From contig JAIZWK010000001.1 in the NCBI GenBank assembly GCA_021498095.1, positions 3,030,001 through 3,062,000 of the forward strand: DNA of 32,000 nucleotides, in the 5' to 3' direction. The notes under the pieces are model-generated. The model saw nothing but the letters and a program-made list of their open reading frames with translations. It made no database searches and had not been told where the DNA came from. This DNA comes from Candidatus Harpocratesius repetitus (GTDB taxonomy: Archaea > Asgardarchaeota > Lokiarchaeia > Sigyniarchaeales > Promethearchaeaceae). The position numbers were made by a program, and so were the translations under genes. Positions 9,985 to 15,787 of this stretch are shown here, one piece after another. How positions within the stretch are numbered: position 1 is the first letter of the stretch; every line of letters begins with the position of its first letter.

Positions 9985-11343
9985 TTAAAATGTACGTATC
10001 CAGAAATCCAAGCGCTTTTGTTTGTGGATATAAGGAAGAAGATTACTAGCATGTTTCCAATATTCTAGAGGAATGGATAATTTGGATTCAACTCTAGTCA
10101 AAGCGGATTCTAGAGTTTCATGCATTTTTACATTATTACCTTTCCAACCATTAGCTAAAGCTTGTTTTACTGTCTCTCGAATTACCCACACACCAAGAGG
10201 GACCACATATCCACCAGATACTTCTCTAAAAACAATTACTCGTGCCTGGCGTCTACTTTTAACTAAAAATTCTTCAATTTCTTTTCGCGCTGCATAATAA
10301 GCACCAGTTACATGATCAGCATATTTTTTTCTTCCTTGCTCAAATTCAAAATCATTCACAATCACCGGTTGAATTGCTTGCATTGGGAGATTTAAACCAG
10401 GAATTGCTTGATTCCAAATGGATGATTGATTCCAACATTCGTTCATTTCATATGCCCACGGTCCTGGAATAAAAATAATAACAAATTTATTATCAAGATA
10501 TTCCCCGTAAAATGAATAATACTTATCTATAGATGGATAATGCTGAAGTTTTTTCTTCAAATATTTACCAATTATATCATCCACTGCAGTAATACTCCAA
10601 CGCGTCGGCACTAAACGACGGTTTTGTTTAACCCCTAATAAACCAGCAGAAAAGATGCGTTGAATGGAGGTTACATTTAAAGAATCTGCATGATATAGAT
10701 ATTCTTCAATTGCATCTGCTGCCTTTAAATCAGTATCGCTAACAGCTTTATCAACAGGTTTTAAAATCTTAATATTATCGATAATTTGTATTTTTTCTGC
10801 TCTTCCACTTGGACCTTGTGGTGGTGAATGTGTTCCATAAAGCATCCCTACTCGCACTCTACTAAGTTTTGCTTCTGTATCCACAGAATTGGAAGCTAAT
10901 GTTAATTCTTGAGTTGCTTCCAGTAGTTTTAAGTTGGATCTTGATAGTTCTTTTTCTAATTCTGAAATTGGTAAATTATACTTCACATTCATAGTAAAAT
11001 TTGAACGTACTAAACCGGATCGATAAGCAATAATTTCATTAATGTCTTTACCAAACCAACTCTCAGGTGAATCTAAATATTTCGTATCTTTTTGTGCGGA
11101 AAAATTTCCAATAGGAATTAACGGCCCTATATTAACATGCGGATAACCAACATGGCCAACAAAAACTGCAGGAGGTGAAGCACCAAAGATATCTTGTTTT
11201 CCCTTGAATTGCCCAGGATCTACAGACAGAGTGCTTTTTAATACACTGTATTTTAGTAATATAGGACATTTTGACTTTCCACAAAGAAGACGAGCCCCTT
11301 TACAACGAACGCAAATATTATCAGATACTTGAGGTCGAACCAT
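9985..11343 (-). CDS. nreA: Nre family archaeal DNA repair protein
   Basis: CVRCKGARLLCGKSKCP N-terminus, SPPAVFVG, LVPTRWSITAVD, GAYYAAR, PLGVWVIRE, and a C-terminal PIP box QKRLDFW. Confidence 0.92.
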   Translation of the reverse strand: MVRPQVSDNICVRCKGARLLCGKSKCPILLKYSVLKSTLSVDPGQFKGKQDIFGASPPAVFVGHVGYPHVNIGPLIPIGNFSAQKDTKYLDSPESWFGKDINEIIAYRSGLVRSNFTMNVKYNLPISELEKELSRSNLKLLEATQELTLASNSVDTEAKLSRVRVGMLYGTHSPPQGPSGRAEKIQIIDNIKILKPVDKAVSDTDLKAADAIEEYLYHADSLNVTSIQRIFSAGLLGVKQNRRLVPTRWSITAVDDIIGKYLKKKLQHYPSIDKYYSFYGEYLDNKFVIIFIPGPWAYEMNECWNQSSIWNQAIPGLNLPMQAIQPVIVNDFEFEQGRKKYADHVTGAYYAARKEIEEFLVKSRRQARVIVFREVSGGYVVPLGVWVIRETVKQALANGWKGNNVKMHETLESALTRVESKLSIPLEYWKHASNLLPYIHKQKRLDFWIRTF

Positions 11344-11707: not shown

Positions 11708-11920
11708 ATGAAAATTGTAACGATTAACATTCCAGATCAATATTTAGATGGAATAGAAACAATGGTTAATCTTGGATTTTATCCTTCACGAAGTGAAGCA
11801 GTTCGCCAAGCATTAAAGCAATTCTTAGCAAGAGAAGCACAGTTCAGTGAAGATTTAGAGACCGACAGATTTGCTAAATTAAAGCAGTTCCAATTAGATA
11901 CAATAATCAATTATAAATAA
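11708..11920 (+). CDS. Ribbon-helix-helix (CopG/Arc/MetJ-type) transcriptional regulator
   Basis: KIVTINIP beta strand followed by YPSRSEAVRQAL. Confidence 0.85.
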   Translation: MKIVTINIPDQYLDGIETMVNLGFYPSRSEAVRQALKQFLAREAQFSEDLETDRFAKLKQFQLDTIINYK

Positions 11921-12083
11921 ACTCAAGATTTCTTTTTGTTTTTTTCTCTTTTCCTTTATAATGCCAAGTTAACTGCTCATATAAGGTTATTTTGATAAAG
12001 CAACTCATTTGACAATTCCTTTCGACTTAATTACTTAGCTCTTTTCATTCATGCCCGTAACTTTTTATATATTTGTATCTTAG

Positions 12084-12091
12084 TTTAAATA
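12084..12091 (+). promoter_or_regulatory. Candidate TATA box for the ileS leader transcript
   Basis: TTTAAATA ends about 30 nt before the leader ATG at 12121, compatible with a near-leaderless start. Confidence 0.35.
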
Positions 12092-12120
12092 GGTCTGTCC
12101 TAAAGGAATAAGTGAAAATT

Positions 12121-12210
12121 ATGCCCGCGTCTGAAACATCTATTCTTATTTCTATATCAACGGAGTTGTTTAAGATCATCTCAGGCGCTATTATTCAAAT
12201 TATCGCATAA
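12121..12210 (+). CDS. Putative Ile-rich leader peptide of ileS (MPASETSILISISTELFKIISGAIIQIIA)
   Basis: ATG...TAA, 29 aa, 9 Ile including three Ile-Ile pairs, 292 nt upstream of ileS on the same strand. Confidence 0.7.
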   Translation: MPASETSILISISTELFKIISGAIIQIIA

Positions 12211-12352
12211 CACTTTTCATTGGCTCCCTAAAATTATCTTGTTTCAGACGCAAGTATTAATATTAAACACTATCAAAAAGAAATTAAATTTCTTATTCAT
12301 TTGTTAGGGAGATCAAAGTCAATGAAATCAGATGAATAATTCTGAAATAAGA
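12121..12352 (+). promoter_or_regulatory. Putative attenuator with alternative helices in the ileS leader
   Basis: Complementary pairs read directly from the sequence: 12127-38/12240-51 (12 bp perfect), 12215-31/12304-27 (9+8 bp), 12237-48/12341-52 (12 bp, one G-U), 12293-303/12329-39 (11 bp, one G-U). Confidence 0.6.
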
Positions 12353-12502
12353 AAATGCGTTGAAATTTGAAAGAATTCAATAAAAAAAGCAAGTGTGATT
12401 CAATTATCTTTTTTTAAGATGAAAATTTGTTCATCATATTAAACAATCCACCTAAATCTTAAATTGATTAAATGGCGGGAACTTTAAAAATTTCAATAAT
12501 AT

Positions 12503-15500
12503 ATGAAAATATTTGAGGAAAAAACAATGAAACCCTTAGGAAATCTAAATTTACTAAAAATTGAAGAAGATATATTAGAATGGTGGGAGAAACAGAAAAT
12601 CTATGAAAAAATAAAAGCTCAAGAACCAGCTGATGAAGAAAAAACTTTTAGATTTATTGATGGCCCACCATATACTACAGGTGATGTCCATTTAGGCACT
12701 GCATGGAATAAAATAATGAAAGATCTTGTCATTAAATATAAAAGAATGCAAGGATTTCGTGTAACTGATACTCCTGGTTATGACACTCATGGTTTACCAA
12801 TTGAAGTTGTAACAGAAAAGAAATTGGGAATTAAAAATAAGCAAGAGATTAAGACGTTTGGATTGGATAAGTTTATTTCAGAATGCAGAGCTTATGCTGA
12901 AAGTAAAATTCCCAGTATGAATGAACAATTCAAGCGTCTTGGTTGCACTTTCTGGGACTGGGATAATCCTTATGTAACATTAAAAAATACATATATTCAA
13001 GGTATCTGGTGGACTCTTAAACGTGCATGGGAAAATGGGTATTTATACAAATTCTATAAACCCCAAAACTGCTGTCCACGATGTGCAACTGCTTTAGCCA
13101 AACATGAATATGAATATCATGATATTACTGATACAGCTATTTTTGTCAAATTTCAATCAGTTGATGATCCTAAAACGTTTTTCATTATTTGGACTACAAC
13201 ACCTTGGACCTTAATCAGCAATACAAATATTATGGCCAACCCAGATGTTGAATATGTCAAAATGCGTGTAAAAGACGAATACTGGATAATGGCAATTGCA
13301 GCTACTTCAGATCTCCTCCAAAATAAATTAGGATTGGTAGTAAATGCAGAAGAGGGTTTTTCATATGGAGAACGTTATACTGGACGCGATCTTGAAGGAA
13401 AACGCTATATTCATCCTTTTGCAGATTTAATACCAAAACAATTAGAATTAGAAAAAGAACAACCATTAGTTCACACAATCATCCTTTCTCACGAATATGT
13501 CCAAGAAACTGGGGGAAGTGGGTTAGTTCACACTGCACCTGGACACGGTCCTGAAGATTTCGAAGTTGGTGTTTCCTATAATATACCGATTTATTCACCA
13601 GTCGCTATGGATGGAACTTATACGAACGATGCAGGAGAATACTTTAAAGGTAAGTATGTGCATGATGCAAATCACGAAATCATTGAAATGCTCCGCAAAC
13701 GGGGAACATTAGTTCATGAAGATTCAATTTCACATGAATATGCACATTGTTGGCGCTGTCATACTAAACTCGTATATAGAGCCACCGAGCAATGGTTTTT
13801 CAAGACATCAGCACTGCGAGATGAAATGTTAAAAGAAAATGATGAAATATTTTGGATACCTGAGTATGCAGGTGCCACAAATTTCAAATCATGGTTAACC
13901 AGTTTACAAGATTGGTGTATTTCACGACAACGATACTGGGGAATTCCCCTCTCAATTTGGACCTGTGAAAATCCAGAATGTGATAATATGCATGTAATTG
14001 GTTCAATGGAAGAATTACGAGAAATCGCAGGAACTTGTCCTGAAGATATCCACAAACCTTGGATTGACGAAGTTACATGGAAATGTGATAAATGTGGAAT
14101 GAAGATGACCCGTATTCCAGATGTTATGGATGTTTGGCTTGATTCTGGATCGGTAATGTGGGCGTCACATAAATTTGTTGATGGGCATGAACATTATGAT
14201 TCATGGGTTCCCGCAGATTTTATTCTTGAAGGAAAAGATCAAATCCGAGGTTGGTTTAACTCTTTATTATGTAGTGCTATGGTCTCTACTAAGAAGAGAA
14301 ATTACAACGTTTGCTATATGCACGGATGGGTAACTAGTCATGGAACGAAAATGTCTAAATCTTTAGGAAATGCCTTAGACCCACAAGATGTCATTAATGG
14401 AAATATAGAAATTTTAACAGAAAAACAAAAAGAATATTTACGAGAATTGGCAGCGGATGAACGTACGTCTAAATTCGATAAAACAAAACAAAAATCAAGT
14501 AAAAACAAGAAACACTGGAAACCAAAATATATAAAAGATGATAGACGCTGGTCAATGATTAAAGGAATTGAAACATTCAGATTTTATTCAGTAATGGGCA
14601 CTCCCCCGGGAAAAGATTTAAATTTTGATTACAAAGAATATACAGATACGTTTAAAGTCTTAAATACAATTTGGAATACATTTAAATTTGCCCAAGAAAA
14701 AATGAAATTAAATGACTTTCATCCTAAGACACATTTGATCAAAAAAGATGAACTTTCTGCAGCAGATAAATGGATTCTGGCTCGAACAAATAGTTTGATT
14801 CGTACAATAACGGATTATTTTGAAAAATTTGAATTACCATCAATTCCTGCTACTTTACAAAATTTCATATTAAATGATCTCTCTCGCTGGTACATCACCA
14901 TTATACGAGATCAAGTTGAACCATCAAATAAAGATCCTTCAAAATACACCACTTTGGCAGTACTTTGGCATGTATTATATCGTGTGCTACTATTACTTGC
15001 TCCGGTTAATCCAATGTTGAGTGAAGAGATCTATCAAAAAATATTTCGTTCAGAATTATCAGATCAGTTAAAACTCTCAATTCATTTAGAACAATGGCCA
15101 AAACCATCACTTGAATACGATAATCATGAAATTGAAGAAGAAATGGCGACTGCTCGTAGAATAATTGATGAAGTGCGTTCATTAAAATCTGAACATAAAA
15201 TAAAACTTCGCTGGCCTACAAAGGGATTAATTATCGTTCCTAAAAATGACAACCCTAAACCTTCATTCCCACAATTGATTCAAGAAATGAGTAATGTAAA
15301 GCAAATAAAAATCAGAAAAACTCACCCGAAAAATCCAGATTATTTATCCACAGAATGGGGAGAGTACGCAATTTATTTGGATTTAGAAGAATCAGAAGAA
15401 ATTCAACAAGAGCGAATTTTACGAGATTTGCTTCGAACTATTCAATTTCTCCGTAAAAATGCAAAATTACAAACAGGAGAATCCATTGAACTTCACTTAA

Positions 15501-15787
15501 GCACAAAACATCCTTTTCTTTTAAAAACGATAAAAGATAATGCTGAAGCAATTAAAATAAAGGTCACAGCGAATCCGATGGATTTTTCACCTGTATCAAA
15601 CCCTAATCTTGATAATTGGACCCGCCATGGTTTCAATGTCTGCTTAAATGAGAATTGCTATTCAGTAGTTAGAGATAAAAACGTTCAAGCAATCCATAAA
15701 GGAGAAAGTTATAAGTGCAGCTATTGTGGTAAATTAGTTACCCTAGAAAAATTGGGTGAAATTCAGATTGAATTTAAAAAGAATTAA
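12503..15787 (+). CDS. ileS: Isoleucyl-tRNA synthetase, archaeal/eukaryal type
   Basis: DGPPYTTGDVHLGT (HIGH), GYDTHGLPIE, WTTTPWTL, GSGLVHTAPGHG, DWCISRQRYWG, EGKDQIRGWF, KMSKS. The start may be ATG 12527, which is preceded by TGAGG. Confidence 0.97.
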   Translation: MKIFEEKTMKPLGNLNLLKIEEDILEWWEKQKIYEKIKAQEPADEEKTFRFIDGPPYTTGDVHLGTAWNKIMKDLVIKYKRMQGFRVTDTPGYDTHGLPIEVVTEKKLGIKNKQEIKTFGLDKFISECRAYAESKIPSMNEQFKRLGCTFWDWDNPYVTLKNTYIQGIWWTLKRAWENGYLYKFYKPQNCCPRCATALAKHEYEYHDITDTAIFVKFQSVDDPKTFFIIWTTTPWTLISNTNIMANPDVEYVKMRVKDEYWIMAIAATSDLLQNKLGLVVNAEEGFSYGERYTGRDLEGKRYIHPFADLIPKQLELEKEQPLVHTIILSHEYVQETGGSGLVHTAPGHGPEDFEVGVSYNIPIYSPVAMDGTYTNDAGEYFKGKYVHDANHEIIEMLRKRGTLVHEDSISHEYAHCWRCHTKLVYRATEQWFFKTSALRDEMLKENDEIFWIPEYAGATNFKSWLTSLQDWCISRQRYWGIPLSIWTCENPECDNMHVIGSMEELREIAGTCPEDIHKPWIDEVTWKCDKCGMKMTRIPDVMDVWLDSGSVMWASHKFVDGHEHYDSWVPADFILEGKDQIRGWFNSLLCSAMVSTKKRNYNVCYMHGWVTSHGTKMSKSLGNALDPQDVINGNIEILTEKQKEYLRELAADERTSKFDKTKQKSSKNKKHWKPKYIKDDRRWSMIKGIETFRFYSVMGTPPGKDLNFDYKEYTDTFKVLNTIWNTFKFAQEKMKLNDFHPKTHLIKKDELSAADKWILARTNSLIRTITDYFEKFELPSIPATLQNFILNDLSRWYITIIRDQVEPSNKDPSKYTTLAVLWHVLYRVLLLLAPVNPMLSEEIYQKIFRSELSDQLKLSIHLEQWPKPSLEYDNHEIEEEMATARRIIDEVRSLKSEHKIKLRWPTKGLIIVPKNDNPKPSFPQLIQEMSNVKQIKIRKTHPKNPDYLSTEWGEYAIYLDLEESEEIQQERILRDLLRTIQFLRKNAKLQTGESIELHLSTKHPFLLKTIKDNAEAIKIKVTANPMDFSPVSNPNLDNWTRHGFNVCLNENCYSVVRDKNVQAIHKGESYKCSYCGKLVTLEKLGEIQIEFKKN

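Follow-up and report, generated by a model that had tools for sequence, protein, structure and literature searches.

The genome that carries the locus described here is archaeal and consists of a single contig of 4.36 Mb with approximately 30% G+C; the closest relatives of its isoleucyl-tRNA synthetase (IleRS) are, according to record titles, from Promethearchaeota (Asgard archaea). Within the window, by which we mean the whole 32,000-nt stretch of DNA that was analysed, a 606-nt spacer upstream of ileS holds an element composed of an isoleucine-rich upstream open reading frame (uORF) and complementary RNA arms, and is followed by the synthetase gene in the same orientation (Table 1). The mechanical open reading frame (ORF) call begins ileS at ATG 12503, but IleRS orthologues align from ATG 12527, and these alignments, together with the GAGG at 12515-18, favour the latter as the probable true start. 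Because the element sits before an archaeal ileS, bacterial terminator rules cannot be assumed for it. Searches against Rfam gave no match in the window at gathering thresholds and, with the limit relaxed to E=5, one noise-level snoRNA match in 11900-12560. The ribbon-helix-helix (RHH/CopG-type) gene, which lies upstream of the element, keeps its synteny with ileS in several genera of the family, both where the uORF is present and where it is not. Two contigs have a GTP cyclohydrolase II gene between it and ileS or in its place. The RHH protein could be a regulator of ileS.

Table 1 Features of the ileS leader, its neighbourhood and the methionine-rich uORF (positions are those of the window)
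Feature	Position	Strand	Basis or remark
Archaeal Nre gene	9985-11343	minus	Protein domain search
RHH/CopG-type gene, 70 aa	11708-11920		Domain search
Candidate TATA-like box, TTTAAATA	12086..12093	+	~30 nt 5′ of the uORF AUG; read from sequence
Leader uORF, 29 codons, ending Ala-TAA	12121..12210	+	Open in all nine leaders
Arm A, shared 5′ strand, codons 3-6, GCGUCUG core, starting 3 nt after the AUG	12127..12138	+	Pairing alignment
Arm B, internal competitor, UCAGGCGC, codons 21-23	12181..12188	+	Predicted to pair with A, 8 bp, -14.2 kcal/mol
Helix (ii), 5′ strand, pyrimidine-rich, starting 5 nt after the stop codon	12215..12231	+	Duplex prediction
Arm C, 3′ strand of helix (i), CAGACGC core	12240..12251	+	Within an 18-nt stretch identical in the congener
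Local hairpin 12293-303/12329-39 enclosing the helix (ii) 3′ strand (12304-27)	12293..12339	+	Complementarity
Helix (iii), 3′ arm	12341..12352	+	Duplex of C with downstream sequence significant in this genome alone
Conserved U-tract block, U7 at 12409-15 then AAGAUGA...UUUG	12398..12444	+	89% identical to the congener
ileS Shine–Dalgarno GAGG (12515-18) and probable true start ATG 12527	12515..12529	+	Orthologue alignment
ileS, class I isoleucyl-tRNA synthetase	12527..15787	+	Pfam tRNA-synt_1 and Anticodon_1 domains
Met-rich uORF, 27 codons, 13 Met, ending Ala-TAA	22896-22813	minus	229 nt upstream of the asd-ask-HcyBio operon

Nine of the 29 codons of the uORF specify isoleucine, with six of these among the last 11 codons, and the 3′ half of the frame contains two clusters, Ile19-20 and Ile24-28; for comparison, isoleucine makes up 10% of the residues in this genome's proteins and 12% of those in its non-coding short ORFs. 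The combination of uORF and helix (i), the pairing of arm A with arm C, was found upstream of ileS in nine Promethearchaeota genomes or contigs. These comprise the present genome, a congener that shares the gene order, is homologous over 12118-12266 and has a further conserved block at 12398-12444, a representative of a different genus (G010), and six further copies from contigs encoding close IleRS relatives. The present leader is approximately 94 nt longer than that of the congener. Overall, the element occupies 9 of the approximately 20 ileS loci of the family with readable upstream DNA, and the others, including those of four genomes of genus g6, are without it. In 151 genomes of the order, a covariance model gave three significant matches, all beside ileS and all in genomes already known to carry the element. 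Scanning metagenomes for the arm cores with a gap of 85-115 nt yielded at least 120 loci, of which three were left after screening for low G+C or a preceding ATG, none of them with a comparable uORF. One Ile-rich short ORF, in L178, sits within a 350-aa coding frame and was set aside as a chance occurrence.

Alignment of the nine copies revealed that the frame from ATG to stop is intact in each, with a length of 27-32 codons, and that, in a six-frame comparison of the stretch, the uORF frame alone is open in 9/9, the five others being interrupted by stops in most copies. The last 11 codons hold four to seven isoleucines in every copy, although the overall enrichment is modest in three leaders, which have only 5-6 Ile (17-20%). 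The encoded peptide has nonetheless diverged rapidly. Nonsynonymous differences far outnumber synonymous ones, with seven nonsynonymous and four synonymous codons between this genome and its congener and 23 and one, respectively, between this genome and L226. These fast-diverging peptides have kept their isoleucines, the initial Met-x-Ala-Ser and an Ala close to codon 23, and the conserved residues other than isoleucine are those encoded by RNA arms A and B. Because the peptide diverges fast and retains only Ile codons and arm-encoded residues, its conservation, as judged from the alignment, is that expected of a regulatory leader peptide and not of a functional small protein. Between the uORF and the gene lie 160-316 nt.

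Upstream of the uORF, the candidate TATA-like box would, if real, give rise to a leaderless or near-leaderless uORF transcript, and AAATTTTTA(A/T)-type motifs precede the uORF in other leaders too. In five copies, a Shine–Dalgarno-like GUGA lies 8-12 nt 5′ of the uORF AUG; in the four others a TATA-like motif is placed approximately 32 nt 5′ of it, which would suit a leaderless message. A positional motif profile drawn up for a promoter consensus upstream of 812 genes was uninformative.

An earlier sequence-only reading of this region had proposed a multi-state RNA switch built on helix (i), with the uORF start codon hidden in an extension of that helix. Helix (i) is present as described, a perfect Watson–Crick duplex of 12 bp (12127-38/12240-51), and it recurs in 9/9 copies with 7-12 bp and a loop of 90-100 nt, arm C lying 30-40 nt after the uORF stop (30 nt here). 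In the core of the A:C alignment, 95.8% of cells are paired, as against at most 46% when the partner columns are slid, and the changes are compensated: arm position 8 is A-U in five leaders, C-G in two and U-A in two, and position 9 behaves likewise. As far as nine aligned leaders can tell, the conservation of this pairing is real, and its covariation stems from about two evolutionary events in three clades, so that the statistics are modest. The AUGC/GUAU extension that would pair the AUG itself is specific to this genome, whereas the placement of an AUG close upstream of the helix is conserved (3 nt in 7/9 leaders, and 6 or 9 nt in the other two).

We compared the region with 1000 dinucleotide shuffles of 12110-12420. 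The suspicion that shuffled sequence would yield equally long helices was borne out for those that admit G-U pairs, a 12-bp helix of this kind appearing in 30% of shuffles, and not for perfect helices of 12 bp, which appeared in 1.9%. Five complementary runs of at least 11 bp were found against 0.86 expected (P ~0.004), several of which share a repeated GAAAUAAGAA/UUCUUAUUUC motif and so are not independent. The minimum free energy (MFE) of the whole region is unexceptional (z = -1.57 for the plus strand and -1.87 for the minus strand). This weak z-score, the abundance of long A/U-rich, G-U-allowing helices among the shuffles and the fact that the uORF is not a genome outlier by Ile enrichment alone are what one would expect if AT-rich intergenic DNA had acquired a fortuitous complementarity and a fortuitous ORF. 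The comparative data contradict such an origin, since in nine genomes the frame is intact, the loop is of fixed length and changes in the arms are compensated, and we regard it as scarcely credible.

Inside the uORF, between the Ile19-20 and Ile24-28 codons, lies a second partner for arm A that the sequence-only reading did not contain. In an unconstrained fold of this genome's leader, A pairs with this arm B and not with C, which speaks against helix (i) as the untranslated default that had been proposed. The best internal partner of A falls in homologous codons in 8/9 leaders; 87.5% of A:B alignment cells are paired compared with at most 50% when slid; and arm position 8 shows the same three pair types as A:C, namely A-U five times, C-G twice and U-A twice. 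Thus A, B and C have changed together, a pattern that fits two alternative helices sharing strand A. Duplex energies across the leaders were predicted at -10.5 to -20.8 kcal/mol for A:C and -8.2 to -15.3 kcal/mol for A:B, favouring A:C, whereas A:B is local and transcribed first. On this comparative evidence, the conserved switch is A:B versus A:C, in which two mutually exclusive helices compete for the 5′ arm and one of the competing strands, B, is located where a stalled ribosome could mask it.

Co-ordinated change of three related sequences could also arise if A, B and C were half-sites of a DNA operator with a GCGTCTG core (one forward, two reversed), bound for example by the neighbouring RHH/CopG protein: the sites of one protein co-evolve, their inverted orientation makes this resemble compensatory change, synteny of the RHH gene with ileS is seen in several genera, and site A would overlap a leaderless transcription start. 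The departures of A:B from perfect pairing are, however, mostly plus-strand G-U wobbles (eight cells), which fits pairing of RNA rather than identity of sequence. Moreover, the sites are spaced at about 55 nt, within a conserved ORF and beyond its end, and there are copies of the element with no RHH gene next to them. We therefore consider an operator very unlikely and retain the alternative RNA helices as the explanation for the three arms.

Other known uses of short complementary arms were considered for the same sequences. Mimicry of tRNA, of the type known for thrS, was rejected, as the arm core GCGUCUG differs from the acceptor stem of this genome's tRNA-Ile (GGGAGAU). A bulge-helix-bulge splice motif was likewise rejected, the sequence having no 3-nt bulges, as was a C/D-box small RNA, for which no correctly ordered boxes were present. 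In two relatives, the acceptor stem of an intron-bearing tRNA-Gly(UCC) gene (G008:C16:7993-8091 and G020:C451:1492-1591) matches the helix (i) core (GCGUCUG/CAGACGC) exactly; the tRNA-Gly and tRNA-Ile stems of the present genome differ from it, and the identity is a coincidence. ARAGORN called only 36 tRNA genes in the genome, many of them with introns, among them a tRNA-Ile with anticodon UAU as well as doubtful Pyl and SeC tRNAs (example, 1330306-1330427).

Downstream of the stop codon, both further helices of the earlier proposal and the hairpin that cages one of their strands exist in the sequence. Helix (ii) (12215-31/12304-27) has a predicted duplex energy of -19.1 kcal/mol and is interleaved with helix (i), as had been recognized. 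A comparable arrangement, in which a pyrimidine-rich strand beginning between stop+1 and stop+5 pairs with a purine-rich strand beyond C, has a significantly low duplex energy in six leaders, with a local version in at least one more, and encloses C in several; in three leaders the best partner of the post-stop strand is the ileS Shine–Dalgarno and AUG region. The strands are of low complexity, and the pairs cannot be aligned base for base among leaders. Helix (ii) is thus best described as a predicted architecture that recurs in six or seven of nine leaders, its layout being shared and its individual pairs not, rather than as proven covariation. Its GGGAGAU...CAAUG strand has a counterpart in the congener, whereas the caging hairpin at 12293-339 does not.

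Helix (iii) (12237-48/12341-52) comprises 12 bp with one G-U, and the associated hairpin (12293-303/12329-39) comprises 11 bp, also with one G-U; given the 30% frequency of such helices among shuffles, helix (iii) alone is unremarkable. The duplex of C with downstream sequence reaches -15.0 kcal/mol in this genome (P=0.01 versus shuffles), but no downstream partner of C in the other eight leaders stands out (P 0.21-0.98), and part of the approximately 94 nt by which this leader exceeds that of the congener falls at the 3′ arm of helix (iii) and at the 12293-339 hairpin. Because its partner beats shuffles here alone and coincides with this extra length, helix (iii) appears to be lineage-specific or fortuitous and is probably outside the conserved device. 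These observations bear directly on the three-state switch in its original form, in which helix (i) would be the default, ribosome position would select helix (ii) or helix (iii), and helices (i) and (iii) would compete for 12237-51. All of its helices exist, the C-downstream duplex is significant in this genome, and the MFE fold does use helix (iii) if the masked ribosome is placed on the stop codon or the mask spans the whole uORF. Against this scheme stand the absence of a counterpart of helix (iii) from the eight other leaders, the ease with which shuffles produce it, the unconstrained pairing of A with B and the omission of B, which, and not helix (iii), is the conserved competitor of helix (i). 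We judge the three-state version improbable, and it is the A:B/A:C switch that we consider below.

The third part of the leader is the conserved block around the U7 tract, which lies at 12409-15 as previously noted. A U-tract of at least six (six to eight U) was found upstream of ileS in 9/9 leaders, 41-118 nt from the gene, followed in most of the nine by a GAGAUGA-type sequence and UUUG. In the five closest leaders, UCAUCUC (the Ile19-Ile20-Ser21 codons, 12176-12182) is complementary to the GAGAUGA after the U-tract (12416-12422), with 6 bp in this genome and without covariation. Archaeal RNA polymerase terminates at U-tracts without a hairpin and with the factor aCPSF1/FttA, and T7-T8 tracts are strong archaeal termination signals. 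No hairpin followed by a U-run, as in terminators of the bacterial type, was found in 11850-12600, and no conserved hairpin adjoins U7; a GAUGAA/UUCAUC hairpin after the U-tract was discarded, as it is not kept in L222 or L223. The same kind of block is also present upstream of ileS in genus g6 (L016-L019) and in L227, both without the uORF. In L227 the upstream gene is divergent, so that a promoter must lie in its 183-nt spacer. From its conservation in relatives without the uORF, we consider that the block may be or overlap a proximal ileS promoter; it may also be an attenuator or terminator, or both, and on the same strand it would form a strong archaeal terminator.

Folding of the nine leaders with the footprint of a ribosome imposed, the check that had been suggested for the switch, provided a divided answer. 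Masking a ribosome at the Ile cluster shifted the predicted pairing from A:B to A:C in three leaders, which agrees with a ribosome-dependent switch, while three other leaders favoured A:C throughout and the remaining three showed no switch. The constrained folds of the nine leaders gave no consistent change at the U-tract or the ileS Shine–Dalgarno, and conserved sequestration of the latter was not found in them.

The presence of the T-tract block in g6 and L227 is also the main ground for a different view of the locus, namely that the uORF belongs to a separate small transcription unit, either a small RNA or a small-protein gene with helix (i) as its closing stem, which has its own promoter and ends at U7, and that ileS is transcribed from a proximal promoter in 12398-12444, any link between the two being in trans or by promoter interference. 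The promoter required in the L227 spacer, the strength of T7-T8 tracts as termination signals and the TATA-like motifs 5′ of the uORF all agree with this arrangement. Several findings argue against it: the element is always directly 5′ of ileS and co-oriented with it (9/9 copies), even where the gene upstream is different (the RHH gene, a GTP cyclohydrolase II gene or another gene); the peptide is kept only at isoleucines and pairing-constrained codons, unlike a functional small protein; and the T-tract with GAGATGA is not a generic promoter motif in this genome, where a DNA run of at least six T followed by [GA][GA]AGATG is matched only 10 times. A methionine-rich analogue described below, which has no T5 or longer tract between uORF and operon, also speaks against it. 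We regard a separate unit as unlikely.

Instead, we propose that 12121-12251 is the sensor of an isoleucine-responsive, cis-acting ileS leader in an Asgard archaeon, a reading to which we assign a probability of roughly 0.55. It is mainly the U-tract block in relatives without the uORF that holds this estimate where it is and leaves the separate unit some standing. Under the proposed cis-acting mechanism, scarcity of Ile-tRNA would slow the ribosome at the Ile codons, so that B, and the first part of the helix (ii) strand that follows the stop, would lie beneath it; with an assumed ribosome footprint of approximately 28 nt, a stall at the last Ile codons would cover the first post-stop bases. 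Strand A, left free behind the stalled ribosome, would then capture C as C emerges, and, A:C being interleaved with helix (ii), its formation would prevent helix (ii). Without a stall, the ribosome would terminate and leave, A:B would re-form and C would stay inside helix (ii). Either helix, A:B or A:C, would restrict renewed initiation on the uORF, because each abuts the AUG, beginning 3 nt from it in most copies. The readout would most likely be either how often the U-tract (12409-15) is read through or how accessible the ileS ribosome-binding site is. That ribosome position governs the structure, and whatever regulation would follow from it, are inferred here. Of the earlier proposal, then, a structured, translated-looking leader with alternative pairings survives, whereas its bacterial logic fits poorly with an archaeal host, the lack of a hairpin-plus-U terminator in the region and the U-tract block of uORF-less relatives.

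When the whole genome was scanned for short ORFs rich in a single amino acid, the top match was a methionine-rich uORF in the same window, approximately 10 kb from the Ile leader. The operon behind it encodes aspartate-semialdehyde dehydrogenase, aspartate kinase and a homocysteine synthesis protein (HcyBio). Neither a T5 or longer tract between this uORF and its operon nor a clear A/B/C layout was found. Chance cannot explain the Met-rich uORF, which means that the organism does carry cognate-codon leaders, and by its sequence and placement it supports ribosome-based sensing. Another short ORF rich in methionine, with 8 Met among 25 codons, is encoded on the plus strand outside the window, at genome positions 3120825-3120902, with no same-strand gene within 3.8 kb downstream. 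Among nine other one-amino-acid-enriched short ORFs that were checked, seven lie 1.3-18.6 kb from the next same-strand ORF and the remaining two 321 and 378 nt from it. No Phe leader precedes pheS in this genome.

Attenuation by a leader peptide is familiar from bacteria as a textbook mechanism and requires transcription and translation to be coupled. The closest system to the one proposed here is pheM-pheST of E. coli, which likewise precedes a synthetase operon; ilvL/ivbL, thrL and trpL are others. As in these attenuators, a short co-oriented ORF with cognate codons clustered near its 3′ end is found directly 5′ of a gene for the same amino acid, mutually exclusive helices share one strand, one strand lies at the site of the stalled ribosome and a U-tract follows. 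The intact co-oriented frame and the clustered Ile codons are seen in 9/9 leaders, with the enrichment modest in three, and the competing helices accompany them. The feature of a classical attenuator that was not found is a fold-dependent terminator. Unlike the bacterial systems, the Ile leader has an archaeal host, lacks a G+C-rich hairpin abutting the U-tract and matches no Rfam leader. Its layout is also not that of the classical 1:2/2:3/3:4 scheme: here the strand common to both helices sits where the uORF begins, beside the AUG, whereas in bacterial attenuators it is downstream of the control codons.

Two other kinds of leader invite comparison. Translation-attenuation leaders such as those of ermC and cat likewise have a tiny uORF with cognate codons at which stalling is thought to control the downstream gene, and stalling on the polycysteine leaderless short ORFs of mycobacteria is likewise thought to control downstream expression (bioRxiv 10.1101/834739). 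In contrast to these, the ileS leaders show no conserved sequestration of the ileS Shine–Dalgarno, and 160-316 nt separate uORF and gene. T-box riboswitches before bacterial ileS serve the same purpose, sensing the charging of tRNA-Ile to set IleRS synthesis; in the leader described here the sensor would be a translating ribosome and not direct binding of the tRNA, and no T-box match was obtained with Rfam.

Our search of full-text literature found no report of a leader-peptide attenuator for Archaea, and we know of none. The fullest form of the proposal is that a ribosome-stalling leader ORF toggles a three-strand switch (A:B or A:C), read out by hairpin-independent termination at the U-tract or by translation, and that, taken with the Met-rich leader, leader-peptide sensing is a regular control layer in Asgard archaea; we give this form a little less than an even chance. 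If true, the lineage nearest to eukaryotes would use ribosome-based amino-acid sensing, here for an essential synthetase gene, and the leader would provide a defined RNA with which to ask how nascent RNA structure regulates archaeal RNA polymerase.
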